Source of the DNA: a virus
Taxonomy: Duplodnaviria > Heunggongvirae > Uroviricota > Caudoviricetes
Virus record (IMG/VR): IMGVR_UViG_2627854098_000004
DNA: 51,192 bases
Direction: 5' to 3' (one strand)
This document shows positions 6,828 to 44,432 of this stretch, one piece after another. The notes beneath the pieces are model-generated. The model was not told the DNA's origin. It worked only from the letters and a program-made list of their open reading frames with translations, and made no database searches. The position numbers were made by a program, and so were the translations under genes. How positions within the stretch are numbered: the stretch's first letter is position 1; the number at the start of each line of letters is the position of its first letter.

Positions 6828-9800
6828 TCAGCTAATCGTGATGCCTGCAGTGGCTTTCTTCATCACAACAACCAGCAAATCGCTGATACTTGCTGTGGGA
6901 TACCAGCCATTTACCCACCATGCTGATACAGAAAACTCCAGCGTCATGTCGCCGCGACCAGCAGGCATATCAATAACACCACTGTAAACCAGCGTATTAT
7001 CCATCGCGGTACGGTTATAAATTTCAGCACCGTTTTTCTTCACTATCAGGCGGCATGACGAATAAGTATCGCTGTTCTCCCGCTCATGTCTGGCACCGCT
7101 GAAAGCCACCGCCGGAATAACAATCTGCCGGTTAAACGGCTGATCGTCATAAACCCTGACGGTAATGGTTCCTGATGGCCAACGCTTCGGTGCACGGGAG
7201 TCACGAGGGAAAGCCTTACCCACTGTTTTAACGAGATCGCCTTCAATCTGGTTTGCAGACAGTTTCCCTCTGATGACACAGTTCTCGTTAATGGTGACAT
7301 TATTGAGCGTGCCGGTATTCGCCGTGATGGCTCCACTGATATCCGCATTGCGGGCTGTCAGCCTGCCATCCGGCGTCAGGGAAAACGTCGGAGGATTGCC
7401 GGATGACGTGATGCTCACCGCAAACAGTCGCTTCAGGAACACGTCGTTCATGAACAGCTGATTCCCCTGCGCCACAAACAGCGGCGTGGTGTTGCCGTTC
7501 TCCGGGGTAATCATCGCAATGCGATCGGCCTGCAGCAGAATGTTACTCAGGGTCTGACCATCAACATCCTCAATCCCCGCACCAATCCCGGCCACATAGG
7601 GAATACCGTTTTTTGTTTTCTGCACCTTCAGCATATACATGGCATTCAGCTCATTGCGCGTGTCTGACTGAACCCGCTGGATTTGCTGTATGGTCACGGC
7701 CTGGTCACCCAGCTTTTTATCCGTGGTCGAGGTAATTTCACTCCCTTTTTTATCCACGTACTGGCGGACCTGTGCTATCTGTCGGGCGTTTTCTGACTGC
7801 CCCTGGCTGACAGTCTGTGAGATTTCACTGCTCACCCGGTCCACTTTCTGGCTCACCTGCGCGATGGCCAGTGTCTGATCCTCATTCTTTTTCGCAACCA
7901 GCTGCGTGAGGCTGTTTTCCGCCTTCCCGATTTTCCGGGTCACTTCTGCGATATCCGTGTCCATCCGCTGACGGATATCTTCTTCCAGTTGCGTGACCTC
8001 CGTACGCAGCGCTGAAGCATCAATGCGCTCTTTCAGTGCCTGACCCAGAAGCGTCTCATCTATCAGCCCCCGGAAAATTTCCAGATACCCTTCACCATCA
8101 TTGCTGGGCTGCCCGCTGGCTTCCACAAAAGCAGATTTTCCCACCAGGTTGACGCTTCGCACGTAAAACCAGAAATCCGTTCCCGGCTTAATCCGGCTCC
8201 CCTGGACAGTCCACTGACTGCCGGTCCCCAGATAACGGGCAGATTTTTCCACCTGTGCTGTGTTCGTGATGCGTTTTTTCTGAGAACCAGAATTCAAACT
8301 GTACCGTCGGGTCATACACCGCAAGACGCGGGACCGCCGTTATCTGAAAATACCCCGGCGTCAGCTCAATGGTGGCGGGTTTTGCAGGTGCGTTAATCCG
8401 GAACGATACCGACGCCGGATCGCCCTGCTGTCCCCGGGCATTTACCGCCCGGACCGTCAGCGTGTAACGCCCCAGCGCCAGCTGCCTGAAGCGGTAAGTG
8501 GTTTCCGCCGTCCGGGCCGTGCTGACCAGCCGCTCACTGCCGTCATCCGCTGTTACGGTCAGACGGAGCAGGAAGCTCACGCCCTTCACCACCTTCGGCG
8601 TGTCCCAGCGCGCCAGCACCTGATATTCCCCGCTGTCTGCGGTGACTTCGGCGGTCAGGTGCTGCACCGCTGGCGGCGTGACACCATTCACCGTGCCGCT
8701 CTGGTCGCCGTCAAAGTGCGCTCCGTTATCCACGATGGCCTCTTTTTCCGGTACATGCTGCACGGCGGTGATGGCATACGTGCCGTCATCGTTCTCACGG
8801 ATACTCACGCAGCGGAACAGGCGCTGGCGCAACGTCGGCAGCTTCAGTCCCCATACGCTGTATTCTGCAACGCCGTCAGGAACACGGCTCACTTTTACCT
8901 TCACGCCGTCGGTGACGGACTGGACCTCCACGCTGACCGGATTCCCCTGTCCGTCAGCCAGGCTTATCAGCGTGGTGCCGGAGGATGGCAGCGTGATTTC
9001 ACGGTCGAGCGTCAGTGTCCGCGTCTGGTTGTTCACCGCCAGCACGCGCCCGCCGATGCTGATCCCCGCATAGTCATCATCACAGATTTCAATGACATCG
9101 CCCGGTACATGGCGAAGCCCTTCTGCACCCACGCTGAAGTCCACGGTCTGCGTTTCCAGCAGCTCCGTTTTAATCAGCCACAGCCCGGCGCGGTGTGCCT
9201 GCCCCCGGCTGGTACAGCCAAAGGCATCCATCTTCGTGACGTTACGACCGTAACGGGCAATGGCCTGCGTGTCCTCCACAAGCTCTGTCGCCGTCTCCCA
9301 GCCGTTATCCGGGTCAATCCAGTTCACCTCAACGGCATTATGGCGGTCTTTCAGGGCGCTGAAGCTGTAGCGGAACGGCGCGCCATCATCCGGCATCACC
9401 ACATTACTGCGGTTATAGGTCCACACCTTATCCGACGGTCGGTCCTGCACGAATGTCAGCGTCTGCCCGTTCCATACCGGCATACAGCGCATCGCCGAGC
9501 AAAAATCACTGAGCACATCCCACGCCTTGCGCTGTGTGGTCAGGTACGCATTACAGGTGATGCGCGGCTCCGTGCCGCCAAAGCCGTCCGGCACTGACTG
9601 GTCGCAATTCTGGCCGATGACATACAGCGCCCATTTATCCACATCTGCCGCACCAAGACGTTTCCCCATGCCGTAGCGCGGATGGGTCAGCATATCCCAC
9701 AGACACCAGGCCATGTTGTTGCTGTATGCTGGCTTAAACGTTCCGTCCCAGATACCGCTGTATTGCCGCGTCTGCGGGTTATAGTTCGACGGCACCTGCA

Positions 9801-10527
9801 GAATGCGCCCGCGAAGATGATAATTACGGCTCACCTGCTGGCTGCCGAACTGCTCCGAGTCCACCTGTACGCCGACCAGTGCCGTGTTCGGGTAGCACTG
9901 TTTCACATCGATGATTTCGGTGTATGACGACCAGAGCGTTTTGTTCTGCAACTGGTCTGTGGTGCTGTCCGGCGTCATCCTGCGCATCCGGATATTAAAC
10001 GGGCGCGGCGGCAGGTTATCCACCACCACCGAGGCCAGATACTGCGACGTGGTTTTGCCCTTAATGGTGATGTCTTTTTCCGTCACCCAGCCACCGTTAC
10101 GTTGAATCTGAACCAGCAGGCGGACTTCCGATGGATTCCTGTCCCCCTTTGAGGTGGTTTCCACCAGTGCCTGCACGCCGAAAGTAAAACGCAGACGGTC
10201 AATGTTTGCCGACGTGATGGTCCGGGTGATCGGCGTGTCATATTTCACTTCTGTACCGAGCACCGTCTCGGAGCCGGAGGATTCAAATCCCTCCGGCGGT
10301 GTCTGCTCCTGCTCACCGGCCCGGAACACCACCGTGACGCCGAATATATTGGTATTCCCCTCACTGTCCAGCACCGGCGTACTGTTCAGCAGCACGCTTT
10401 TTAATCCATCCACCGGACCTTCAACCGGCCCTTCGCTGATGGCGTCTATCACGCTCAGCATCTGGGATGATTTCAGGTTGTCCTTCGCTTCGCGCGGGGT
10501 ATGCCCCTTACTGCTGCCTTTACCCAT
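6828..10527 (-). pseudogene. J: tail tip/host-specificity protein J, split by a frameshift in a homopolymer at 8274-8279
   Basis: ORFs 8188..10527 (lambda J-like N-terminal 740 aa) and 6828..8324 (J C-terminal part) overlap; the reading frames join at the plus-strand T6 run 8274-8279 (A6 in the coding sense); removing one base restores [17 protein letters not shown]. Confidence 0.8.
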
Positions 10528-11260: not shown

Positions 11261-11902
11261 TTGTCGGTATAACCTCTCTCGTTTGCTCAGTTGTTCAGGA
11301 ATATGGTGCAGCAGCTCGCCATCACCACAGTAAATGGCGGCATGATTCGGCACCGATGAACCAAAACAGCACAGCAGCACATCGCCCGGTTGTGCTGATG
11401 ACAACGGCACCTGATACAGCCCTGTGGCCTCCAGATTATCCAGATAGAGATTCTGGCCGTTACGCCACCAGTCATCCTCACGATAAAAGTCCGGCATCTC
11501 AATCCCCGCCAGATGATAAGCATCCCGGAACAGTGTGTAACAGTCCGTCACACCGTGCTCAAAGCGCCGCCCGGTGAGATGCGGCACACAGCGGAACTTA
11601 TGAATCGTCCCCCGGCAGACCAGCCACCACGGCAAATCACTCTGCACCTGCAGCCGCCGGTCGGCCTCACTCAGCCAGGGCAGACCACCGGGGTGGCTGT
11701 GGACCAGCGCCACAATCTCACCCTGCATTTCTGCCTGCAGCCAGTCTTCCGGCGACATACGGAAATACGCCTCCGGCTCACCGGAGATATTCACGCAGGG
11801 GAAATATCTTTCCCCCTCCGGCGTGCTTACCACGAAGCCGCACGACTCCGCTGGCGCACATCGCCGGGCGTGCGCCAGAATCGCTGATTCTGTCTGTGTC
11901 AT
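11144..11902 (-). CDS. K: tail tip assembly protein K (MPN/JAMM HSHPGG motif plus NlpC/P60-like Cys-His-His); C-terminus altered by frameshift
   Basis: 252-aa ORF starting 5 nt after the L stop; a lambda-type frame would end at 11159-11157; here an extra base near 11271 shifts the C-terminal about 40 residues into the I-start frame. Confidence 0.65.
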   Translation of the reverse strand: MTQTESAILAHARRCAPAESCGFVVSTPEGERYFPCVNISGEPEAYFRMSPEDWLQAEMQGEIVALVHSHPGGLPWLSEADRRLQVQSDLPWWLVCRGTIHKFRCVPHLTGRRFEHGVTDCYTLFRDAYHLAGIEMPDFYREDDWWRNGQNLYLDNLEATGLYQVPLSSAQPGDVLLCCFGSSVPNHAAIYCGDGELLHHIPEQLSKRERLYRQMAATHTLPLASPGMARICLYGDLQRFGRRTRPSCENGG

Positions 11903-12606: not shown

Positions 12607-12935
12607 CAGTTCACCACCTGTTCAAACTCTGCGCTGAACTCAACACGCAGCATACTGACCCGCGACGACCATTTTGCGCAGGTCACCTTTATCTGCCGCC
12701 ACTCATAAGGCGGCGTCCACAGAAAGGCTTTCCAGCCCCCGTGCTCTTCCAGAAACAACTCCAGTACCGTGGCCTCCTCACGGGGGACAGAAAGCGTCAC
12801 GCTGTACGTTTTCAGGTTGGCATTCAGCCCGGCAGGCGCTCGCTGGGAATAGCCATCACCAAAGCGCACCTTTCTTACAGAAGGGACCGAAGCCACATCC
12901 ATACCGGGTTTCACTTTCCAGCGGAAGGTCTTCAT
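12606..12935 (-). CDS. M: tail tip assembly protein M
   Basis: 109 aa; near-identical to lambda gpM. Confidence 0.9.
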   Translation of the reverse strand: MKTFRWKVKPGMDVASVPSVRKVRFGDGYSQRAPAGLNANLKTYSVTLSVPREEATVLELFLEEHGGWKAFLWTPPYEWRQIKVTCAKWSSRVSMLRVEFSAEFEQVVN

Positions 12936-15496
12936 CGTCCACCTCCGGAGAACAGGCCACCATCACGCATCTGTGTCTGAATTTCATCACGGGCACCCTT
13001 GCGGGCCATGTCATACACTGCTTTCATCATCTGTGGACCTGGCAGACCATTCGTACCGTCGTTCTGAATCACCACGTTGTTGTTCTGCTCAAACCTGATA
13101 CCCTCTGAACGCCGCATTTGCGCCGGACTTCCGGTGCCACCGACATAACCGCCGGTGGCATAGCCGCGCATCAGCCGGTAGAGATTTCCCACGCCAATCC
13201 GGCTGGTTGCCTCCTTCGTGAAGACAAATTCACCACGGTGAACAATCCCCGCTGGCTCATATTTGCCGCCGGTTCCCGTAAATCCTCCGGTTGCAAAATG
13301 GAATTTCGCCGCAGCGGCCTGAATGGCTGTACCGCCTGACGCGGATGCGCCGCCACCAACAGCCCCGCCAATGGCGCTGCCGATACTCCCGACAATCCCC
13401 ACCATTGCCTGCTTAAGCAGAATTTCTGTCATCATGGACAGCACGGAACGGGTGAAGCTGCGCCAGTTCTGCTCACTGCCGGTCAGCATCGCCGCCATAT
13501 TCTGTGCAATACCATCAAAGGTCTGCGTGGCTGCACTTTTAACCTGCGACATACTGTCCGTGGCGCTCTCTTCCCACTCACTCCAGCCGGACTTCAGGCC
13601 TGCCATCCAGTTCCCGCGAAGCTGGTCTTCAGCCGCCCAGGTCTTTTTCTGCTCTGACATGACGTTATTCAGCGCCAGCGGATTATCGCCATACTGTTCC
13701 TTCAGGCGCTGTTCTGTGGCTTCCCGCGCTGCCTGCCGGTCAGTCAGCCCCCGGTTTTTCGCATCAATGGCGGCCCGTTTTGCCCGTTGCTGCTGTGCGA
13801 ATTTATCCGCCTGCTGCGCCAGCGCGTTCAGGCGCTCCTGATACGTAACCTTGTCGCCAAGTGCAGCCAGCTGGCGTTTGTACTCCAGCGTCTCATCTTT
13901 ATGCGCCAGCAGGGATTTCTCCTGTGCAGACAGCTGGCGACGTTGCGCCGCCTCCTCCAGTACCGCGAACTGACTCTCCGCCTTCCACAAATCCCGGCGC
14001 TGCTGGCTGATTTTCTCATTCGCTCCGGCATGCTTCTCCAGCGTCCGGAGTTCTGCCTGAAGCGTCAGCAGGGCAGCATGAGCACTGTCTTCCTGACGAT
14101 CGCCCGCAGACACCTTCACGCCGGACTGTTTCGGCGTTTTTCAGCGTCGCTTCATTAATCCTTTTTCGCCGCCGCCATCAGCGTGTTGTAATCCGCCTGC
14201 AGGATTTTCCCGTCTTTCAGTGCCTTATTCAGTTCTTCCTGACGGGCGGTATATTTCTCCAGCGGCGTCTGCAGCCGTTCGTAAGCCTTCTGCGCCTCTT
14301 CGGTATATTTCAGCCGTGACGCTTCGGTATCGCTCTGCTGCTGCGCATTTTTGTCCTGTTGAGTCTGCTGCTCAGCCTTCTTTCGGGCGGCTTCAAGCGC
14401 AAGACGGGCCTTTTCACGATCATCCCAGTAACGCGCCCGCGCTTCATCGTTAACAAAATAATCATCCTTGCGCAGATTCCAGATGTCGTCTGCTTTCTTA
14501 AACGCAGCCTCTGCCTTAATCAGCATCTCCTGCGCGGTATCAGGACGACCAATATCCAGCACCGCATCCCACATGGATTTGAATGCCCGCGCTGTCCTGT
14601 CTGCCCAGGTCTCCAGCGTGCCCATGTTCTCTTTCAGGCGGCGGGTCTGGTCATCAAACCCTTTCGTCGCGGCCTCGTTCGCCGCCTGCAATGCCCCGGC
14701 CTCTTCGCCGGAACGCTGCAACTGAGCAACATACGCAATCTGCTCCGCCGTCACGTTATGGAACTGGCGCGCCATCGCTGTCAGCCCCGACGTCGGGTCA
14801 GTGGTCAGCTTCCCGAAGGCTTCAGCGACCTTGTCCACCTCCACGCCGGATGCAGAGGAGAAACGCGCCACACTCTGGCTGATGGACGCAATCTGAGCCT
14901 CACCGCTTACCCCCGCCTTAACCAGTGCGCTGAGTGACTCGCTGGTCTGGTTAAACGTCAGCCCTGCCGCCTGCCCGGCTCTGGACAGGACCAGCATGCG
15001 ATCTGCCGTCAGACCCGACTGATTGCCGGAAAGGACCAGCGTTTTGTTGAAATCGGACAGGGTTGAGTTGCCCTGATACCAGGCATACGCCAGCGCACCG
15101 GTCGCCACCGCCAGCGAGGTGGCCCCCACCATCGGCAGGGTGATCGCACCGGCAAGCCCCCTGAACATGGGGATCATCCCGCCGAAGGAGTCCTTAACCT
15201 GACCACCCTGTTGCAGCAGGATCAGCCACGGACTTTGCCCGCCTGCAAGCTGCGTGGCCACGTCGGTGAACTGTGCAGGCAGCATACGCATGGCGGCTTT
15301 ATACTGCCCGACGGAAATCCCCGCTTTCTGTGCAGCCAGCGCCTGTCGGCCTCAGCGACTGTTCAACGACTGCCGCTGTTTTTTTCGCATCACTTTCCGT
15401 ACCGGAAAAATGACGCCTGACTCTGGCCATCTGCTCGTCAAATCTGGCCGCATCCAGACTTAAATCAACGACCAGATCGCCTACCGGTTCAGCCAT
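12932..15496 (-). pseudogene. H: tape measure protein H, broken into three ORFs by three +1 insertions
   Basis: ORFs 15299..15496 (H N-terminus, 65 aa), 14155..15291 (378 aa) and 12932..14119 (395 aa) are colinear with lambda gpH (853 aa); span is 2565 nt against 2562 expected; first and last ORFs share a frame, the middle 1.2 kb is +1. Confidence 0.8.
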
Positions 15497-15923
15497 ACCG
15501 GACTCCTCCTGCGATCCCTTCTGATACTGTCATCAGCATTACGTCATCCTCCGTCATGCCCGCCATATCCGGGGAAGCGGGGATAACTTCATTTCCGTCC
15601 GGGTCAAAGCGGACGCCTCCGGTAAGCCCTGCCGCTTTCTGCATCAGCACATCATCTTCAGGCTCTTCGTCATCCTCACGCCGGTTCAGCAAACTGAAAT
15701 CCAGCGGATGCATATCCGGATCGCTGAAAAACAGGCTGAGCACAGTGTACGTCAGCCCGGAAAAGTGCATATCCAGCAGAACATCATGAAAATAATGGGT
15801 ACTGTAAAAGCGGTGCCAGTCGGCATACTCCGTGGATGACATCCCGGCAAGCATGGCGCGCCAGTCAGGTCGCCCCATCTCTCGCGCCAGTTTCAGGGCA
15901 AAACTCAGCTCACCGTCGAACAC
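15489..15923 (-). CDS. T: T portion of the tail assembly chaperone G-T (made by programmed -1 frameshift from G)
   Basis: T ORF 15489..15923 overlaps the end of G; near-identical to lambda gpT. Confidence 0.85.
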   Translation of the reverse strand: MFDGELSFALKLAREMGRPDWRAMLAGMSSTEYADWHRFYSTHYFHDVLLDMHFSGLTYTVLSLFFSDPDMHPLDFSLLNRREDDEEPEDDVLMQKAAGLTGGVRFDPDGNEVIPASPDMAGMTEDDVMLMTVSEGIAGGVRYG

Positions 15924-16327
15924 TTTCCCGCAGAAACAGGCTCTGCAGGCCCGGAGTCCTCTGCCTGGTCAGGGGCATCATTCACCACAAACCCATACAT
16001 ACCGGACAGCCGGTACACCACGTTTTCAGCATGAGAAATTGCCTCCGCGGGCCAGGTGGTAAGCACTTCCTGCTCAATCTGTTTAACGGCTTCATTCATG
16101 GAAGGCTGCTTTGTCTTCTGCGGATGGTTATGCCACAGGGACATCGCCACCACAAAAGCACCGGTTCTGATGGCGTCTTCCACAGTAACCTGCCGGTTGC
16201 TGTCTGACTCCGCCTGTTCTGCCTGCTGTTTCATCAGGGCGAGATGCTCAATACGCTGCAGGGCTGACAGTTCAGAAAGCGTGACGGTCACGCCGTTATG
16301 TTCAAATGATTCGGTTTTCAGGAACAT
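15905..16327 (-). CDS. G: tail assembly chaperone G
   Basis: 140 aa; near-identical to lambda gpG. Confidence 0.9.
   Translation of the reverse strand: MFLKTESFEHNGVTVTLSELSALQRIEHLALMKQQAEQAESDSNRQVTVEDAIRTGAFVVAMSLWHNHPQKTKQPSMNEAVKQIEQEVLTTWPAEAISHAENVVYRLSGMYGFVVNDAPDQAEDSGPAEPVSAGKCSTVS
15923..15929 (-). promoter_or_regulatory. programmed -1 ribosomal frameshift slippery heptamer GGGAAAG (G to G-T)
   Basis: The - strand reads GCG GGA AAG TGT ... in the G frame; a -1 shift gives GGG AAA GTG TTC GAC GGT, which is the start of the T ORF. Confidence 0.8.
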
Positions 16328-16342
16328 CGCTGACTCTCCGGA

Positions 16343-17083
16343 TTAACTGTCGGTGACAGTGATTTCTGCAACCGCAGCAAGTTCACCATTACCGGATACA
16401 ACCGGAATGTTGACCTTGCCTGCAGCAACGCCGTTCACGGTGATGGTCATACCACTGACCGACACGGTGGCTTTTGTTTTATCCGCTGACACCGCACGGA
16501 AGCTCTTGTCAGTTGCGCCCTCCGGCTGGAAGGCCACGGTCAGCGTGGTGCTCTGCCCTTTCACCACCGAGGAGCTGGCAGGCGTCACGGTCATACCGGT
16601 TGCCGCCGTCACCGTACTGCGATCTTCTGCCATTGACGGACGGCCCACATTGGTGACCTTCACCGTACGGGTGATCACTTCCTTCGCCGTCACCGCCTTA
16701 CCGATACTGCTGACCCAGCCACGGAACACATCGACCGTGCCGTTCGGGAAGCGGATTTTATAGGCACGGGTATCACCTTCATTAAACCACGCCAGCAGCG
16801 CCTGCTGCCCCTGCTCTCCGGGCATCCACGCCAGCGTGAAGCTGGTATCTCCGGCGGATTTCTGCCCCTGCCCGGTCGCGGTCCAGTCCGCATCTTCATC
16901 ATCGAGATAACTGTCGTCATAGGACTCAGCGGTCAGTTCGCCGGGCGTCAGGTCTTTAATTTTTGCCAGACGCGACCAGTCATTGTCTGAAAGCGGGTTT
17001 GCATAAGGGTCGCCGCTCCCGTTATAAACCCACAGTGTGGTCCCGGCCCCTTTCACCGGTGCCAGAGGATTTGGTGTTGGCAT
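16343..17083 (-). CDS. V: major tail protein V
   Basis: ORF 16343..17113; start ATG 17083-17081 gives [14 protein letters not shown], lambda gpV-like. Confidence 0.9.
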
Positions 17084-26117: not shown

Positions 26118-26219
26118 TTTACGGATGCAATATTAAAAAAACAAAAAGTTATATTCGAGAAGTACCGTAACCGGCTCATTTAAACCGTCTGGTCTGTTTC
26201 CTCCGGCTCTACAAAAATA

Positions 26220-26897
26220 ATGTCCATCATTTTTAATGGACACTATCGTATGAAACACCGGACCTGGATCACTGAAGCTTTACGTCTTCACTTTGAAGAA
26301 CATTTACCCCGGGTTGTGGCCGGGCGTCGCCTGGGTGTACCAAAATCAACAGTTTGTAGTATGTTCGTGCGCTTTCGGAGAGCTGGCCTTTCGTGGCCTT
26401 TGCCCGCAGGCATGTCGGAGCAGGAACTTGATGCCTGCCTTTACGGACAATTTTCCACGGTACCAGTCGTACGTCCTGAAAGCACCGTTATATCCGAAGC
26501 CCCCGTGGTAAAAAAACGTCCCCGGCGGCCCAACTTCCCTTATGAGTTTAAAATCGCCTTAGTGGAGCAGTCACTGCAGCCCGGAGCCTGTGTGGCGCAG
26601 ATCGCCCGGGAAAACGGAATCAACGATAACCTGCTCTTCAACTGGCGCCATCAATACCGGAAAGGTGGCCTGCTGCCTTCCGGAAAAAATATGCCGGCAC
26701 TGCTTCCCGTGACGTTAACGCCGGAGCCGGATAATAAAATCCCGGCCCCCGCACAGGAACCAGAGCAGATAAATACACCGTCCGACAGTCTGTGTTGTGA
26801 GCTGGTTCTGCCGGCCGGAACTCTCAGGCTTAAAGGTAAACTGACGCCGGCGTTATTACAGACACTTATCCGCGAAATAAAAGGGAGCAGCCACTGA
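26220..26897 (+). CDS. IS66-family accessory protein TnpA (start uncertain)
   Basis: ORF has an IS66 orf1-like C-terminal part (PNFPYEFKIALVEQSL...LLFNWRHQYRKG); the N-terminal extension may not be translated. Confidence 0.6.
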   Translation: MSIIFNGHYRMKHRTWITEALRLHFEEHLPRVVAGRRLGVPKSTVCSMFVRFRRAGLSWPLPAGMSEQELDACLYGQFSTVPVVRPESTVISEAPVVKKRPRRPNFPYEFKIALVEQSLQPGACVAQIARENGINDNLLFNWRHQYRKGGLLPSGKNMPALLPVTLTPEPDNKIPAPAQEPEQINTPSDSLCCELVLPAGTLRLKGKLTPALLQTLIREIKGSSH

Positions 26898-27244
26898 TGA
26901 TATCTCTCCCTGCAGGTTCGCGTATCTGGCTGGTTGCAGGTATCACCGATATGCGAAATGGCTTTAACGGCCTGGCATCAAAAGTTCAGAACGTCCTGAA
27001 GGATGACCCGTTCTCCGGACACCTGTTCATCTTCCGCGGACGCCGGGGTGACCAGATAAAAGTGTTGTGGGCTGACAGTGACGGACTGTGCCTCTTCACC
27101 AAACGCCTGGAGCGGGGCCGCTTCGTCTGGCCAGTCACCCGTGACGGCAAGGTGCACCTTACTCCGGCTCAGTTATCCATGCTTCTTGAAGGTATCAACT
27201 GGAAGCACCCGAAACGAACGGAACGCGCTGGAATCCGCATATAA
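26897..27244 (+). CDS. IS66-family TnpB
   Basis: 115 aa; [27 protein letters not shown] signature. Confidence 0.85.
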   Translation: MISLPAGSRIWLVAGITDMRNGFNGLASKVQNVLKDDPFSGHLFIFRGRRGDQIKVLWADSDGLCLFTKRLERGRFVWPVTRDGKVHLTPAQLSMLLEGINWKHPKRTERAGIRI

Positions 27245-27263
27245 CCCGTTGTAAAGTGAGGAT

Positions 27264-28835
27264 ATGGACACCTCACTTGCTCATGAGAACGCCCGCCTGC
27301 GGGCACTGTTGCAGACGCAACAGGACACCATCCGCCAGATGGCTGAATACAACCGCCTGCTCTCACAGCGGGTGGCGGCTTATGCTTCCGAAATCAACCG
27401 GCTGAAGGCGCTGGTTGCGAAACTGCAACGTATGCAGTTCGGTAAAAGCTCAGAAAAACTTCGTGCAAAAACCGAACGGCAGATACAGGAAGCACAGGAG
27501 CGAATCAGCGCACTTCAGGAAGAAATGGCGGAAACGCTGGGTGAGCAATATGACCCGGTACTGCCATCCGCCCTGCGCCAGTCTTCAGCCCGTAAACCGT
27601 TACCGGCCTCACTTCCCCGTGAAACCCGGGTTATCCGGCCGGAAGAGGAATGCTGTCCTGCCTGTGGTGGTGAACTCAGTTCTCTGGGATGTGATGTGTC
27701 AGAGCAACTGGAGCTTATCAGCAGCGCCTTTAAGGTTATCGAAACACAACGTCCGAAACAGGCCTGTTGCCGGTGCGACCATATCGTGCAGGCACCAGTA
27801 CCTTCAAAACCCATTGCACGCAGTTATGCCGGAGCGGGGCTTCTGGCCCATGTTGTCACCGGGAAATATGCAGACCATCTGCCGTTATACCGCCAGTCAG
27901 AAATATACCGTCGTCAGGGAGTGGAGCTGAGCCGTGCCACACTGGGGCGCTGGACAGGTGCTGTTGCTGAACTGCTGGAGCCGCTGTATGACGTCCTGCG
28001 CCAGTATGTGCTGATGCCCGGTAAAGTCCATGCTGATGATATCCCCGTCCCGGTCCAGGAGCCGGGCAGCGGTAAAACCCGGACAGCCCGGCTGTGGGTC
28101 TACGTCCGTGATGACCGTAACGCCGGTTCACAGATGCCCCCGGCGGTCTGGTTCGCGTACAGTCCGGACCGGAAAGGTATCCATCCACAAAATCACCTGG
28201 CCGGTTACAGCGGTGTGCTTCAGGCCGATGCTTACGGTGGTTACCGGGCGTTATACGAATCCGGCAGAATAACGGAAGCCGCGTGTATGGCTCATGCCCG
28301 GAGAAAAATCCACGATGTGCATGCAAGAGCGCCCACCTACATCACCACGGAAGCCCTGCAGCGTATCGGTGAACTGTATGCCATCGAGGCAGAGGTCCGG
28401 GGCTGTTCAGCAGAACAGCGTCTGGCGGCAAGAAAAGCCAGAGCCGCGCCACTGATGCAGTCACTGTATGACTGGATACAGCAACAGATGAAAACACTGT
28501 CGCGTCACTCAGATACGGCAAAAGCGTTCGCATACCTGCTGAAACAGTGGGATGCACTGAACGTGTACTGCAGTAATGGCTGGGTGGAAATCGACAACAA
28601 CATCGCAGAGAACGCCTTACGGGGAGTGGCCGTAGGCCGGAAAAACTGGATGTTCGCGGGTTCCGACAGCGGTGGTGAACATGCGGCGGTGTTGTACTCG
28701 CTGATCGGCACATGCCGTCTGAACAATGTGGAGCCAGAAAAGTGGCTGCGTTACGTCATTGAACATATCCAGGACTGGCCGGCAAACCGGGTACGCGATC
28801 TGTTGCCCTGGAAAGTTGATCTGAGCTCTCAGTAA
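27264..28835 (+). CDS. IS66-family transposase TnpC
   Basis: 523 aa; zinc-ribbon CxxC...CxxC and IS66 transposase core. Confidence 0.85.
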
Positions 28836-28919
28836 ATATCAATACGGTTCTGACGAGTCGCTTACGAAGTACCGACACGATTTTCCCTGAAAAATTTTCA
28901 TAAATAGTGAAAAACCGCG

Positions 28920-30501: not shown

Positions 30502-30795
30502 ATGAAAAAAATGTTGTTTTCTGCCGCTCTGGCAATGCTTATTACAGGATGTGCTCAACAGACGTTTACTGTTGGAAACAAACCTACAGCAGTAACACCA
30601 AAGGAAACCATCACCCATCATTTCTTCGTTTCGGGAATTGGGCAGAAGAAAACTGTCGATGCAGCAAAAATTTGTGGTGGTGCAGAAAATGTTGTTAAAA
30701 CAGAAACCCAGCAAACATTCGTAAATGGATTGCTCGGTTTTATTACTTTAGGCATTTATACTCCGCTGGAAGCGCGTGTGTATTGCTCACAATAA
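30502..30795 (+). CDS. bor: Bor lipoprotein (serum-resistance family)
   Basis: Start MKKMLFSAALAMLITGCAQQ; near-identical to lambda Bor; opposite strand to the lysis genes as in lambda. Confidence 0.9.
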   Translation: MKKMLFSAALAMLITGCAQQTFTVGNKPTAVTPKETITHHFFVSGIGQKKTVDAAKICGGAENVVKTETQQTFVNGLLGFITLGIYTPLEARVYCSQ

Positions 30796-37575: not shown

Positions 37576-38470
37576 AAATCCACCCCGTAAATCCAGTCAG
37601 TGTTTGTCAGGTCGAGTTTTGGTTTGCAGGCTGTCACACCTGCCTGTTGCTTGTTACGGTTGATTTCGAGCTGGGTCCACTTGTCGCGGAGTTTGGCCGG
37701 GCTCAGCACGTTACCGGACCAGAAGTTGTCCTGGCATGCCCAGCGGAACAGTACACACATGTCGCGATGGTTACGTCCGTCACGTTCACGCATCAGGCGG
37801 ATATCGTTAGCCCACCCTGCAAAATTCGGTTTTCTGGCTGATGGCGCGATGGTCTTCACCATGTCAAACATCCATTCTGCGGCGGTCAGGTCTTCTGCTG
37901 TCCCCCACTTGCTGCCGCTCTGAATTGCAGCATCCGGTTTCACCACAGAAAGGTCGTTTTCTGGCTGGTCAGAGGATTCGCCAGAATTCTCTGACGAATA
38001 ATCTTTTCTTTTTCTTTTGTAATAGTGTCTTTTGTGTCCCCCTGTTTTGAGGGATAGCAATCCCCCAATTTGAGGGATGTTTTATCCCTCGTTTTAGGGG
38101 ATTTTCCCTCGTTTTGAGGGATACACCATTCTGAGATGTTTTTATTTGGTCCAAACATGCCGCCTTGCTGCTTGATAATATTCATTCTGACGAGTTCTAA
38201 CTTGGCTTCATTGCACCGTTTGACGGGTAACTTTGTAATCTCGCTAAGTTGAGAATCGGTGATTCTGTCCATTGGTTTATTCCATCCATAGGTTTTACGC
38301 AGAATGGCAAGCAGCACTTTAAACTGTCGCTTGGTCAGATCTGCGCCTGAATAAGCCTCAAGCAGCATATTTGATAGTCTGGCGTAACCATCATCGAGAT
38401 CTGCCACATTACGCTCCTGTTTGGCAAAGTTACCTCTGCAGAAGTTGAGTATTTTTGCTGTATTTGTCAT
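37572..38470 (-). pseudogene. O: replication initiator O, split by a 1-nt deletion in the AT-rich ori segment
   Basis: ORFs 37940..38470 (O N-terminus) and 37572..38060 (O C-terminus) overlap; total 899 nt against 900 expected; the frame change maps to the plus-strand T5 run 38009-38013. Confidence 0.75.
38041..38120. repeat. ori iterons (four roughly 19-bp O-binding repeats) inside the O gene
   Basis: On the - strand four tandem copies of TCCCTCAAAACGAGGGA-like repeats, followed by an A/T-rich segment at 37990-38040. Confidence 0.85.
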
Positions 38471-41709: not shown

Positions 41710-41798
41710 ATGTCCAGAAAAACAGAATTTAAAGGCACCGCAGCTTCTCGCCGTAGAGCTCGTCGCGCAAATCTGCAAAGTCAGGAGGCGATCAGCTC
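41710..41798 (+). pseudogene. N: N antiterminator, 5' fragment (codons 1-29), interrupted by IS66
   Basis: ATG 41710 with RBS GGAGGAA; arginine-rich N-terminus MSRKTEFKGTAASRRRARRA; reading frame continues at 44249 after the IS and one copy of the target duplication. Confidence 0.55.
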
Positions 41799-41835
41799 GT
41801 AAGCGTGCAGCAAGAACCGTATTGACGGGGATGTG

Positions 41836-43374
41836 TTATTCAGTCGGCAGTGCTACGCGCCAGGGGAGCAGTTCGCCGACCCGGTTTATCGGCCAGTCGG
41901 CTATGACGTCAAGGACATAGCGGAGGTAGCTTTCTGGCTCCACTCCGTTCAGTTTGCACGTCCCGATCAGGCTGTACAGCAGCGCTCCCCGCTCTCCTCC
42001 ATGATCCGAACCGAAGAACAGGTAGTTTTTGCGGCCCAGACTGACCATCCGCAACGCATTTTCAGCGATGTTATTGTCCGCCTCAGCCCAGCCATCATCT
42101 GCATAGTACGTCAGCGCCGGCCACTGGTTCAGGGCGTATGCGAACGCTTTCGCCAGTTCTGAGTGTCGCGACAGGGTTTTCATCTTTTCACGCAGCCAGC
42201 TTTCCAGGGATTTCAGCAGCGGTTTCGTTTTCAACTGACGTTCGGCAAGGCGCTGCTCCGCCGTCATTCCCCTTATCTCTGCCTCGATGGCGTACAGTTC
42301 GCCGATCCGTTTCAGCGCTTCCTCCGTCAGGGCTGACGGGGTGCGAACGTGCACATCGTGGATTTTACGGCGGGCGTGAGCCCAACAGGCGGCTTCCGTT
42401 ATCCGGCCATCCCGGTACAGCTCGTTGAACCCGGCGTATGCATCCGCCTGCAGTACACCACTGAACCCCGCAAGATGGGTCTGCGGATGGATGCCTTTTC
42501 TGTCCGGGCTGTAAGCGAACCACACCGCCGGCGCCAGCGTTGACCCGGCGTTACGGTCGTCACGAACGTAGGTCCATAACCGCCCGGTCTTCGTTTTCTT
42601 ATTGCCTGGCAACAGCACCGGGACAGGCGTGTCATCAGCATGGAGCTTACCGTCAGTCAGCACATAGCCATGAAGCGCCTCTTCCAGCGGAGACAGCAGC
42701 CGGCAGCATGCATCCACCCAGCCCGACAGCAGTGAACGGCTCAGCTCCACACCTTGCCGGCCGTATATTTCTGACTGGCGATACAGCGGGGTGTGCTCTG
42801 CATACTTCGAGGTCAGCACGCGGGCCAGCAGCCCCGGTCCGGCGATACCCCGCTCGATGGGCCGCGAAGGTGCAGGTGCCTGCACGATGGCATCGCACTG
42901 AGTACAGGCATGTTTTTCCCGTACCGTCCGGATAACCCGGAAGGCGCTACGCATCAACTCCAGCTGTTCGGCGGTATCCTCGCCCAGATAGCTCAGTGAA
43001 CCGCCGCAGTTCGGGCAGCACGGCGCCGCAGGCAACAGTCGCTTTTCGTCACGGGGTAGTGATTCAGGGAACGGCTTACGGGTGCGGGTCTGACGCAACG
43101 GACGCTGTACTGCCGGGTCATACACCCTACCAGTCAGCGTATCGCTCTCTTTCTGAAGCCGGTTCAGATCGGCTTCCATTTGTGCGATACGGCGGGAGAC
43201 TTTTTCGGAACGACTGCCGAAGTTCATCCGGCGGAGTTTATCCAGCTGCGCCTGCAGATGGTCTATTTCGCGCTCCCGGTTGCTCAGCTTTTCCTGCAGG
43301 GCGTGGATCAGCGCTTCCTGTTCGGCCAGGCGCTGTTTCAGCAGGAAGATGTCGTCAGAAGAGATGTCGTTCAT
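41836..43374 (-). CDS. IS66-family transposase TnpC
   Basis: 512 aa; IS66 transposase with zinc-ribbon CxxC motifs. Confidence 0.85.
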
Positions 43375-43423
43375 AAGCCCGTATTTTACCGGGCTTATTC
43401 TGTGACAACCAGGATAAAGAGAT

Positions 43424-43771
43424 TTACAGCATGGTCAGGGAGGTCAGCAGCCGCTTAGGCTGTCGCCAGTCGATACCTTCCAGCAGCATCGCCAGCTGCG
43501 CCTGTGTAAGGAACACTTTGCCATCACGGGCTGACGGCCAGGCGAAGCGCCCACGCTCCAGCCGTTTGGTCAGGAGGCACAGTCCGTCACCGGTGGACCA
43601 CAGCAGTTTAACCTGACTGCCGCTGCGGCCCCGGAAAATGAAAACATGGCCGGACATGGGATCGTCTTTCAGCGCCGTCTGTACTTTCGCAGCCAGGCCG
43701 TTGAAGCCATTTCTCATATCAGTGATACCGGCAACCAGCCAAATTTTGGTCCCGGAAGGTAACGGGATCAT
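43424..43771 (-). CDS. IS66-family TnpB
   Basis: 115 aa; [27 protein letters not shown]. Confidence 0.85.
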
Positions 43772-44169
43772 CGCTTCAGTTCCTGTATCAGCAGAGTCAG
43801 GAGCTTTTCGCTGACATTGCCATTGAAGCGGAGCGTCCCGTGCCGGAACGTTACCTCACAGCTGATACTGAGGGTTTCCGGGTCCTCTGCGAGCGATTCT
43901 GGCTGTTCGGCAGCTGCATCGAGAGTCACAGGAAGTAGCTGGGGGCTCTCTGAAGAAGGTAATAGCAGCTTTCCCTCGCGCCATTGTTGTCGCCATTTGA
44001 ACAACAGATTGGCGTTAATGCCATTTTCAAGAGCAAGTTTTGAGATGGATATCCCGGGTTCACAGGAGGCAGCAACGAGCTGCTGTTTAAATTCGGGAGG
44101 ATAATTAGGGCAGCCTTTTCGCCTGCCGGGAGTCACATTTTTCTGCATATCTGACACTTTGGTTCCCAC
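43768..44169 (-). CDS. IS66-family TnpA
   Basis: 133 aa; ATGA-type overlap with tnpB. Confidence 0.8.
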   Translation of the reverse strand: MGTKVSDMQKNVTPGRRKGCPNYPPEFKQQLVAASCEPGISISKLALENGINANLLFKWRQQWREGKLLLPSSESPQLLPVTLDAAAEQPESLAEDPETLSISCEVTFRHGTLRFNGNVSEKLLTLLIQELKR

Positions 44170-44240
44170 TACTTATTTGGTGGACACCACTTTGTCTAAT
44201 TCGTCAGATTCTGACCAGACGGTTCAGGCTGTACGCTTAC

Positions 44241-44432
44241 ATCAGCTCCGACAAGCTACACAGGCCAACCCCTTCACGAGTGGTCTTGCAATGCAAGCTC
44301 AAACCAGCAATGAGAGCAGAAGTGATAACTCTGACAACGTTGACCAGAAAATATGAAGGTTCAACTTGTCTTCCGAACGTAGCTCTTTACGCGGCAGGCT
44401 ACCGGAAATCAAAACAACTGACGGCGAGATGA
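44241..44432 (+). pseudogene. N: N antiterminator, 3' fragment
   Basis: In-frame continuation of the 41710 ORF once the IS and one target-duplication copy are removed; stop TGA at 44430-44432; reconstructed N is 90 aa. Confidence 0.5.

Follow-up and report, generated by a model that had tools for sequence, protein, structure and literature searches.

A very probable orthologue of the lambda G/G-T programmed -1 frameshift site in an apparently defective E. coli prophage

Does the end of gene G in this prophage carry the programmed -1 frameshift of phage lambda, and is the copy still of use? We analysed a window of 51,192 nucleotides (IMG/VR record IMGVR_UViG_2627854098_000004). Sequence comparison indicates that the site is very probably the orthologue of the lambda G/G-T programmed -1 frameshift, in a prophage of E. 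coli APEC IMT5155 related to phage 21 and PhiR63_2. The original prediction had matched the site to the known lambda mechanism; sequence, phase, gene order, protein families and conservation all agree with it, and the slip itself, its rate and the chaperone roles are taken from the lambda literature. The site is already known: it is a textbook recoding signal, in a copy identical to that of phage 21 and nearly identical to that of lambda.

The lambda G/G-T frameshift was reportedly studied by Levin, Hendrix and Casjens (1993) and by Xu, Hendrix and Duda (2004, 2013, 2014). In lambda, a -1 shift of ~4% takes place at G GGA AAG, tail assembly needs a G:G-T ratio of ~30:1, and G binds H while T binds V (PMC3296357; PMC5009743); PMC7618472 also backs the G/G-T frameshift. 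By analogy, the ~4% rate is assumed to apply to the window copy.

The coordinates of the features are given in Table 1. Inspection of the sequence places the predicted GGGAAAG at 15929..15923 on the minus strand, at the end of G, in the correct phase and five codons before the stop. There, the G frame reads GCG GGA AAG TGT TCG ACG GTG AGC TGA (A G K C S T V S stop), a phase of X XXY YYZ that fits the requirement of a tandem -1 slip. In the -1 frame, the same stretch reads GGG AAA GTG TTC GAC... and is open into T, as had been proposed: 146 open codons precede the TGA, and the frame continues for 138 further codons across T, to 15489. The interval originally given, 15905-15929, covers exactly the stretch that opens with the heptamer and closes with the G stop codon; only its strand, the minus strand, had been left unstated. 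A stop closes the -1 frame 5' of G codon 120, so that a G-T fusion is possible from one 61-nt interval only. This overlap contains exactly one in-phase XXXYYYZ motif, G GGA AAG.

Table 1. Coordinates of the frameshift site and of the surrounding features in the window.
Feature	Coordinates	Strand	Remarks
Gene V, major tail tube protein	16343..17083	-	Pfam Phage_TTP_12 (1.3e-70) and Big_2; RefSeq CDS of 741 nt
Shine-Dalgarno-like GGAGAG	16334..16339	-	Ends 6 nt 5' of the G start codon
Gene G, tail assembly chaperone	15905..16327	-	140 codons and TGA (15907..15905); 0-frame product
Slippery heptamer G GGA AAG	15923..15929	-	Gly-Lys in both frames; 5 codons 5' of the G stop
-1 frame through T, GK VFDGELSFALKLAREMGRPDW...	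15489..15929	-	146 codons and TGA (15491..15489)
Candidate stem, 5' arm CGGUGAGC	15908..15915	-	Predicted; begins 7 nt 3' of the heptamer and adjoins the G stop codon
Candidate stem, 3' arm GCUUGCCG	15845..15852	-	Predicted; the stem would enclose 55 nt
Gene H, tape measure protein, client of G and G-T	12932..15496	-	RefSeq 'frameshifted' pseudogene

The bare motif is not enriched in the window, where GGGAAAG occurs 8 times against 6.63 ± 2.70 times in shuffled sequences. The heptamer count being no higher than chance, enrichment was discarded as evidence; the significance of the site, as judged from sequence, is in its phase, its V-to-H position, the protein-family matches and conservation, and not in motif count. 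Among the stop-to-stop ORFs of 100 codons or more (143 in all), we also looked for ends with an in-phase heptamer and a -1 extension of 50 codons or more. Four ORF ends passed, that of G and three others (27861, 47160, 11809 on plus strand). These three were rejected as off-frame or antisense ORFs that overlap real genes, which are, once the coordinates are mapped to the RefSeq annotation, IS66 tnpC, bet and the antisense of L/K. A second minus-strand GGGAAAG (11814..11808) falls in K, at an offset of 88 from the start of that gene; being out of phase, it was set aside as well.

Each of the two frames belongs to the expected protein family. G is matched by Pfam PF06894 (Phage_TAC_2; 1.3e-57, 193.5 bits for a cutoff of 27) and by the NCBIfam equivalog TIGR01674 (phage_lambda_G; 8.7e-63, 210 bits, cutoff 74); the protein, RefSeq gpG WP_000479129, shares 91.4% of its residues with lambda G and all of them with phage 21 G. 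The T frame is matched by Pfam PF06223 (Phage_tail_T; 2.9e-14, 53.7 bits, cutoff 25.9) and by the NCBIfam equivalog TIGR01715 (2.2e-55, 185.7 bits, cutoff 77). PHROG 32165, whose 290-position profile was built from fused proteins, is covered by both: positions 1-142 by G and positions 137-285 by the T frame. The G/T pair is flanked by the tail tube and tape measure genes, in the order V-G-T-H, all on the minus strand. The identification of the two genes as lambda G and T is supported by the Pfam and NCBIfam matches.

With lambda, the locus shares the heptamer G GGA AAG, the five codons to the G stop, a 140-aa G, a 279-aa fusion and the V-G-T-H order; the DNA shows no difference from 17 nt before the heptamer to 46 nt after it. 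Identity to lambda is 91% in G and 97% in the T part, which leaves 17 amino-acid differences in the fusion (262/279 residues identical, 94%). The gpG cluster in Table S6 of Sharma et al. is also listed with a length of 279 aa (PMC4066793). Phage 21 (OL657228) is closer still: its G and G-T proteins are 100% identical to those predicted here (279/279 for the fusion), within 1.1 kb of surrounding DNA at 99.9% identity. Its record annotates G-T as a joined frameshift CDS, named tape measure chaperone. The two differ in H, which is intact in phage 21; the window has an extra base at about 15351, within the 1.1 kb, and two more further into the gene.

To follow the site among relatives, we compared the window with 15 phages (16 loci in all), whose G identity ranges from 100% down to 28%, and with a further set of 159 loci that stem from IMG/VR and from Enterobacterales genomes of many genera. 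In 15/15 phages and 158/159 further loci, the -1 frame is open across the G stop and the T amino acids are conserved from the slip site onward; in the same numbers of loci, G ends 0-5 codons past a motif of the ..A AAG type, the distance being 1-5 codons in the 15 phages. GGGAAAG itself is at this position in lambda, phage 21, PhiR42_1 and Stx2a phages, as well as in 101/159 further loci; depending on the clade, GGGAAAG, AAAAAAG, GGAAAAG or rarer forms are found. Enterobacterales prophages retain the A AAG core together with the G-stop/T-frame architecture, while they vary in the first half of the heptamer. The site had been described as conserved, which is true of this architecture and of the core but not of the heptamer, which differs between clades. 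These data also bear on the notion of a chance heptamer without any role, to which we give next to no probability. The unremarkable motif count would suit it, but the heptamer is in the correct phase and unique in the 61-nt overlap, both frames have family matches, the site is identical to the one studied experimentally in lambda, and the architecture is found in 158/159 loci: on comparative sequence data, chance is effectively refuted.

The more distant relatives N15 (gp14/gp15), phi80, cdtI, Gifsy-1 and Fels-1 have homologous G and T proteins in the same architecture, with an invariant A AAG at the homologous position, and the records of N15 and Gifsy-1 annotate the frameshift. They differ from the window in the motif, G GAA AAG, in the distance to the G stop (1-5 codons) and in a shorter T of 112-117 codons. 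As G GAA AAG is not a perfect XXXYYYZ, the slip in these phages would rely mainly on the A_AAG tetramer. Phage P2 has an analogous device, E/E+E', between its tail tube and tape measure genes and with an analogous purpose, but there is no sequence similarity and its slippery sequence is T6G (PMC3931495).

RefSeq describes T as an independent gene (WP_000459474, 144 aa) that starts at GTG 15923..15921; if this were so, the heptamer would be incidental. The T-frame GTG indeed overlaps the last base of the heptamer, and T is listed as a separate CDS by RefSeq, by the lambda reference record and by several phage records. However, this GTG has no Shine-Dalgarno sequence at a usable distance, the sole purine-rich stretch, GGGA, ending 2 nt before it, and relatives with the same conserved T N-terminus have GTC, GCA or GCC in its place. 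In 12/16 loci, the first ATG, GTG or TTG of the T frame is found only 21-75 nt 3' of the heptamer, past conserved T residues; T would therefore not generally arise by its own initiation. The fused protein is moreover represented by PHROG 32165 and by the joined CDS of phage 21, and the literature attributes gpGT to frameshifting (PMC3296357). Altogether, we regard independent initiation as very unlikely; the T frame is probably expressed solely as the C-terminal part of G-T. It is here that the site is of practical value, for annotation: RefSeq has a free-standing T that starts inside the heptamer and lacks the 279-aa G-T product, and many phage records likewise list T alone, without G-T.

By the mechanism that we propose, ribosomes would start at the G start codon (16327), with the GGAGAG upstream as the sole entry point for both G and G-T, as we infer from sequence; the phage 21 record annotates a ribosome-binding site at the equivalent position. 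The majority would read G GGA AAG in frame and terminate five codons on, which would give the 140-aa chaperone gpG. A minority would slip back by one base, with tRNA-Gly on GGA and tRNA-Lys on AAG; the slipped tRNAs would re-pair with GGG and AAA, and translation would proceed in the -1 frame through T to a 279-aa gpG-T, with the junction ...PVSAGK|VFDGELSF.... At the core of the slip would be the single E. coli tRNA-Lys (mnm5s2UUU), which pairs weakly with AAG and better with AAA. As in lambda, many gpG and few gpG-T would then coat the tape measure gpH, the T domain would recruit the tube protein gpV, and neither gpG nor gpG-T would be retained in the virion, if the lambda scheme holds.

The same protein would also result from transcriptional slippage, with RNA polymerase dropping one A in the AAA run and no slip of the ribosome. 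A longer A run, AAAAAAG, does exist in some relatives, but that of the window consists of three A's only, and polymerase slippage generally needs much longer homopolymers. In lambda, the G:G-T ratio responds to the thiolation of tRNA-Lys, a translational effect (PMC3296357), and reviews class the lambda case as ribosomal frameshifting, in contrast to transcriptional slippage (PMC5009743). This origin of G-T is, in our estimate, extremely improbable, and a slip of the ribosome is the reading that we retain.

G_GGA_AAG ranks among the most shift-prone heptamers of E. coli (PMC4066793; PMC5009743); GGGAAAG alone in a reporter gives 0.277% frameshifting (PMC4066793 Table S3). The native lambda site shifts at ~4%, against the ~0.3% of the bare heptamer. 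E. coli dnaX (A AAA AAG) and IS3/IS911 have slip sites of the same X XXA AAG class, read by the single E. coli tRNA-Lys (PMC5009743; PMC4066793); they differ in their demonstrated stimulators, an upstream SD-like element and/or a downstream hairpin or pseudoknot, and in far higher shift rates. No stimulator of the dnaX/IS3 type, be it a hairpin, a pseudoknot or an SD-like element above background, was found at the site. Upstream, inspection of the sequence for an SD-like stimulator of the dnaX type returned only an AGGA ~29 nt 5' of the heptamer, and such a spacing is too far for dnaX-type SD stimulation. Downstream, single-sequence folding of 107-nt and 60-nt stretches gave energies no better than those of shuffled sequences (z of -0.22 and +0.23), and RNAalifold on 75 sequences gave no family-wide consensus structure. 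Sharma et al. (2014) list no SD for the gpG cluster, and they judged its hairpin fortuitous, with a ΔΔG of 0.020 ± 0.095 per nt that is no better than the local average (PMC4066793 Table S8).

A run of RNAalifold on 10 sequences had suggested one stem that the 75-sequence run did not recover. It is possible, if rather doubtful, that this 8-bp long-range stem, CGGUGAGC/GCUUGCCG, modestly stimulates the G-T frameshift from its 3' side in the window and in the lambda, Stx2a, N15/Kluyvera and Leclercia/Atlantibacter/Buttiauxella clades; if it did, it would help explain the native ~4% versus the ~0.28% of GGGAAAG alone in a reporter. Its spacing of 7 nt from the heptamer suits a stimulator. Every lambda-type sequence has the stem in perfect form; the Phytobacter/Kosakonia clade lacks it, and in the cdtI, Gifsy and Proteus clades it is weak.

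Covariation was assessed on a one-genome-per-species collection, instead of the viral-contig relatives that are 97-100% identical in T and uninformative in this respect. At pair 16-84, 26 unique sequences have G-C, 20 have A-U, 6 have C-G and 1 has G-U, and in 22 the pair is broken; its swap from G-C to A-U links a Gly/Ser change with a synonymous Ala position, and none of 47 unique sequences has an A-C mismatch. Overall, 78.5% of the cells of the stem are paired, as opposed to at most 45% in slid registers. The covariation is limited to clades, with some 2-3 independent swaps only, and both arms encode conserved residues. Pairs with a two-sided change are no more frequent in the stem than in shuffles, 402/500 of which reach its count.

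Is the copy of the window still in use? Lambda is a viable phage, whereas the window copy lies in an integrated and apparently defective prophage, with N interrupted by IS66 and H, K, J and O frameshifted. We lean slightly towards a relic whose site is intact in sequence and idle in function: G and G-T would be unexpressed or would lack working tape measure and tip proteins, with too little time elapsed for the heptamer to decay. A 2.4-kb IS66 element, which PhiR63_2 lacks, interrupts gene N, and another member of the IS66 family, ISCro1, is found immediately 5' of the small terminase gene. RefSeq annotates O, H, K and J as 'frameshifted'; the single-base indel of O is at 38014. With the IS66 element in N and these annotated frameshifts, tail assembly in IMT5155 probably fails, irrespective of G-T.

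The client of the two chaperones is itself affected. Compared with lambda, phage 21 and PhiR63_2, H has three extra nucleotides, single insertions near 15351, 14156 and 14136, which break it into ORFs of 65, 378 and 395 aa, and the Pfam domains TMP_2 and Tape_meas_lam_C are found on the pieces. Two further 1-nt insertions are in K and one is at the end of L; phage 21, PhiR63_2 and lambda have none of them, and those in H are missing from the other E. coli genomes listed. The site is intact, but with client genes that appear to be broken it is probably a retained and idle copy; expression of the late operon may be poor, and a G-T product would be left without a working client.

Some of the evidence goes the other way. 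G, T, V, U, Z, the head genes, Q and the lysis genes are intact, and the small indels could be assembly errors of 2014: all are insertions, they are clustered in ~4 kb, and the region is otherwise ~99% identical to viable phages. An idle copy would, in any case, concern present use only, and is compatible with the identity of the site as the orthologue of the lambda signal. The sequence contexts of the insertions in H, L and K are mixed, four of them extending a run of 1-2 nt and two not.

The tail genes of the window lie on the minus strand, and the heptamer GGGAAAG stands near the end of G, the tail assembly chaperone gene. The G frame reads GCG GGA AAG TGT TCG ACG GTG AGC TGA at the site: the heptamer is in the phase G GGA AAG, and the stop codon comes five codons further on. 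The −1 frame is open from the heptamer into T, and the interval 15905-15929, where the original prediction placed a conserved lambda-like G-T programmed −1 frameshift site, spans exactly the heptamer through the G stop; both the heptamer and the open frame are borne out. The −1 frame is closed as far as G codon 120, which leaves only 61 nt in which a fusion could arise. It contains a single in-phase XXXYYYZ motif.

Coordinates of the slip site, its reading frames, the candidate stem and other features of the window
Feature	Position (nt)	Strand	Detail
GGGAAAG heptamer	15929..15923	minus	sequence read on the minus strand
G ORF	16327..15905	minus	140-aa product, C-terminal end ...PVSAGKCSTVS
−1 frame (T) from heptamer		minus	GGG AAA GTG TTC GAC...; open 146 codons; TGA 15491..15489
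T in RefSeq	15489..15923	minus	separate CDS from a GTG overlapping the heptamer; NZ_CP005930.1 4138166..4138600
Candidate stem, 5' arm	15915..15908	minus	CGGUGAGC; RNAalifold, 10 sequences
Candidate stem, 3' arm	15852..15845	minus	GCUUGCCG; RNAalifold, 10 sequences
H	12932..15496	minus	1-nt insertions ~15351, 14156, 14136; 'frameshifted' in RefSeq
L, end	11909		1-nt insertion
K (C40 peptidase)	11272, 11172		two 1-nt insertions
J	6828..10527		frameshifted
IS66-family element	~41798..44241		2.4-kb; tnpA/tnpB/tnpC; splits antiterminator gene N
ISCro1	~26167..28866		second IS66-family element; just upstream of small terminase gene, cos/Nu1 region
Replication gene O	~38014		1-nt deletion in A run, out of frame; 'frameshifted' in RefSeq
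Other small indels relative to PhiR63_2	36533, 33810, 30942, 26142		within homopolymer runs
iss	30502..30795	plus	increased serum survival lipoprotein, bor homologue

The two frames belong to the expected protein families. In Pfam, the 0-frame ORF matches Phage_TAC_2 (1.3e-57) and the −1 frame Phage_tail_T. Among the NCBIfam equivalogs, TIGR01674, 'phage tail assembly chaperone G', scores 210 bits (cutoff 74) on the 0-frame ORF, and TIGR01715, 'phage tail assembly protein T', scores 186 bits (cutoff 77) on the −1 frame. PHROG 32165, a 290-position profile made of fused proteins, is matched at positions 1-142 by G and 137-285 by the −1 frame; the two frames of the window therefore abut at the heptamer. 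Upstream, U and the major tail tube gene V match Phage_tail_U and Phage_TTP_12; downstream, the tape measure gene H matches TMP_2 and Tape_meas_lam_C. The gene order is the canonical V-G-T-H.

Identity over the 1.1 kb around the site is 99.9% between the window and phages 21, ev017, PhiR57_1 and PhiR63_2, and roughly 97% between the window and lambda-type phages. DNA identity with lambda is unbroken from −17 to +46 nt about the first base of the heptamer. The slip site of phage 21 is identical to that of the window, and its record holds both G, as 'tape measure protein chaperone', and a joined G-T CDS labelled as lambda's GT frameshift product. The window's predicted fusion has 279 aa, the length of the gpG cluster in Sharma et al. 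(PMC4066793), and is identical to phage 21 G-T at 279/279 positions and to lambda G-T at 262/279.

The bare heptamer is not in excess over chance: the window has 8 copies, where dinucleotide shuffles give 6.63 ± 2.70 and 33 of 100 of them reach 8. Of 143 stop-to-stop ORFs with 100 codons or more that were scanned mechanically, four have an in-phase heptamer at their end and can be extended there by 50 or more codons in the −1 frame. The other three are rejected: by RefSeq coordinate mapping they are off-frame or antisense, and run into IS66 tnpC, bet and the antisense of L/K. Since the heptamer alone is at chance level and these matches are spurious, the case for the slip site rests on context and homology.

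We compared the G-T region in 15 phages, whose G is from 100% down to 28% identical to that of the window. In all 15 the −1 frame runs open past the G stop, the 0-frame stop lies 1-5 codons past the motif, and the −1-frame protein is kept from the slip site on (GK[VA][FL]..E[LM].F..[LM].LARE[MF][GR]R[PA]DW). Lambda, 21, PhiR42_1 and Stx2a phages carry the motif as G GGA AAG, an Stx1 phage and 1720a-02 carry it as A AAA AAG, and the form is G GAA AAG in N15, phi80, mEp043, Kp4865-4, cdtI, mEp460, Fels-1 and Gifsy-1; N15's own record annotates it as a slippery sequence. A AAG is invariant among these motifs, in agreement with A_AAG being the best tetramer in E. coli, where G_GGA_AAG, C_CCA_AAG and A_AAA_AAG are the most shift-prone heptamers (PMC4066793). 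The 30 nt 5' of the motif are poorly conserved.

A further 159 loci came from 80 contigs of IMG/VR and 80 contigs of genomes in many Enterobacterales genera, after one unusable contig was set aside. The homologous position reads GGGAAAG in 101, GGAAAAG in 50, AGAAAAG in 3, GGCAAAA in 2, GGTAAAG in 2 and GGGAAAA in 1; for the four rare forms the exact slip position comes from alignment alone. The 0-frame stop lies 0-5 codons past the motif in 158. The sole exception, L146 in Shigella flexneri CP182557.1, is a decayed G-T remnant that has lost the architecture: its 0-frame ORF has 28 codons, and the T frame extends for 11. The predicted conservation thus holds for the architecture and, among the phages, for the A AAG core; the form of the heptamer varies. 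Most non-lambda clades use G GAA AAG, which is not a perfect XXXYYYZ motif, and a few use the rarer forms (loci L007, L010-L016, L118-L180). Slippage there must depend mainly on the A_AAG (or A_AAA) tetramer.

Lambda-type G-T, 96-100% identical to the window's T, is also found in draft assemblies of unrelated bacteria: Neobacillus, Oceanobacillus, Kitasatospora, Pseudomonas, Shewanella, Chromatium, Leeuwenhoekiella, Paenibacillus, Enterococcus, Psychrobacter and others (L102-L108, L110-L116, L123, L135, L158). The names of many of these contigs give a coverage of about 1x; the public assemblies look to be contaminated with lambda DNA.

T could alternatively start on its own. RefSeq, the lambda reference record and several phage records present it as free-standing from the GTG in the heptamer and omit the 279-aa G-T, unlike the phage 21 record with its correct joined CDS. 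However, the window sequence has no Shine-Dalgarno at a usable distance from this GTG, which is replaced by GTC, GCA or GCC in relatives with the same T N-terminus. In 12 of the 16 loci formed by the window and the 15 phages, the first T-frame ATG, GTG or TTG comes 21-75 nt 3' of the heptamer, past conserved residues. For these reasons independent initiation is very unlikely to be the conserved route to T.

To judge from context, protein families, conservation and near-identity, the site is the −1 programmed frameshift site already known for lambda-type G/G-T, as the original prediction had it. In lambda, about 96% of ribosomes keep the 0 frame and the remainder slip −1 at GGGAAAG, which encodes Gly-Lys in either frame; a single tRNA-Lys(UUU) reads both lysine codons, and loss of its 2-thiolation increases frameshifting and lowers lambda yield (PMC3296357; PMC7618472). 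The resulting G:G-T ratio of about 30:1 is critical to building the tail: both G and the G portion of G-T attach to gpH, the tape measure, the T domain attaches to gpV, the tube protein, and the virion contains neither G nor G-T (PMC5009743). Given the near-identity, we infer that the same steps apply to the window: most ribosomes would keep the 0 frame and make G, a minority would slip at GGGAAAG to make G-T, both products would bind gpH, and the T domain would bind gpV.

In Sharma et al., the gpG cluster (G_GGA_AAG_4) has no Shine-Dalgarno; a 54-nt hairpin with a 7-nt spacer occurs in 51% of its members, with a stability not above the local average (ddG 0.020 ± 0.095 per nt). GGGAAAG alone gives 0.277% shift, against 3.8% with IS911 stimulators and 43% with the IS3 pseudoknot (PMC4066793). 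Set against the roughly 4% seen in native lambda, 0.277% leaves scope for a contribution of context.

A possible 3' stem is the only thread left beyond the known site. The downstream 60 and 107 nt of the window fold no better than shuffles (z = +0.23 and −0.22). From 10 sequences, RNAalifold proposed an 8-bp stem that pairs columns 15-22 with 78-85, numbered from the heptamer, after a 7-nt spacer; it abuts the G stop codon. Among 75 unique sequences it is 78.5% paired, against at most 45% in slid registers, and pair 16-84 is G-C in 26, A-U in 20, C-G in 6, G-U in 1 and broken in 22, with a G-C to A-U swap between clades. On the tree, the stem is perfect in the lambda-type, Stx2a, N15/Kluyvera and Leclercia/Atlantibacter/Buttiauxella clades, keeps 7/8 pairs in phi80/Enterobacter and Stx1-type sequences, is weak in the cdtI/Gifsy/Proteus group and is absent in Phytobacter/Kosakonia. 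Pairs with two-sided changes are not in excess over shuffles (402 of 500 reach the observed number), RNAalifold no longer finds the stem when run on the 75 sequences, each arm codes for conserved residues, and the covariation amounts to only about 2-3 independent swaps. We regard the stem as an unproven, clade-limited candidate.

The window spans a lambdoid prophage, with int at its right end and tail fibre genes, then non-phage genes, at its left. The G-T-H stretch matches E. coli APEC IMT5155 (NZ_CP005930.1) at 100% identity, and a related stretch occurs in 3731 of 5426 complete E. coli genomes. The insertions, the deletion in O and the frameshifted J given in the table are differences from PhiR63_2, phage 21 and lambda. 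Intact are the slip site and the genes G, T, V and U. The IS66 element in N, missing from the otherwise 100% identical early region of PhiR63_2, is real structural damage and should cripple lytic development. Three single-base insertions break H into ORFs of 65, 378 and 395 aa; they total +3, which returns the last segment to the frame of the start. They are missing from lambda, phage 21, PhiR63_2 and the other E. coli genomes among the matches listed. The six small indels of H, L and K are without exception insertions, most outside long homopolymers, and could reflect either errors of the assembly or decay specific to the strain. In either case the IS insertions are structural. The prophage is probably defective, and its assembly of tails is doubtful. 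Beside the lysis cassette lie iss and an ompC/nmpC-like porin gene, cargo of possible relevance to the avian pathogenic strain.
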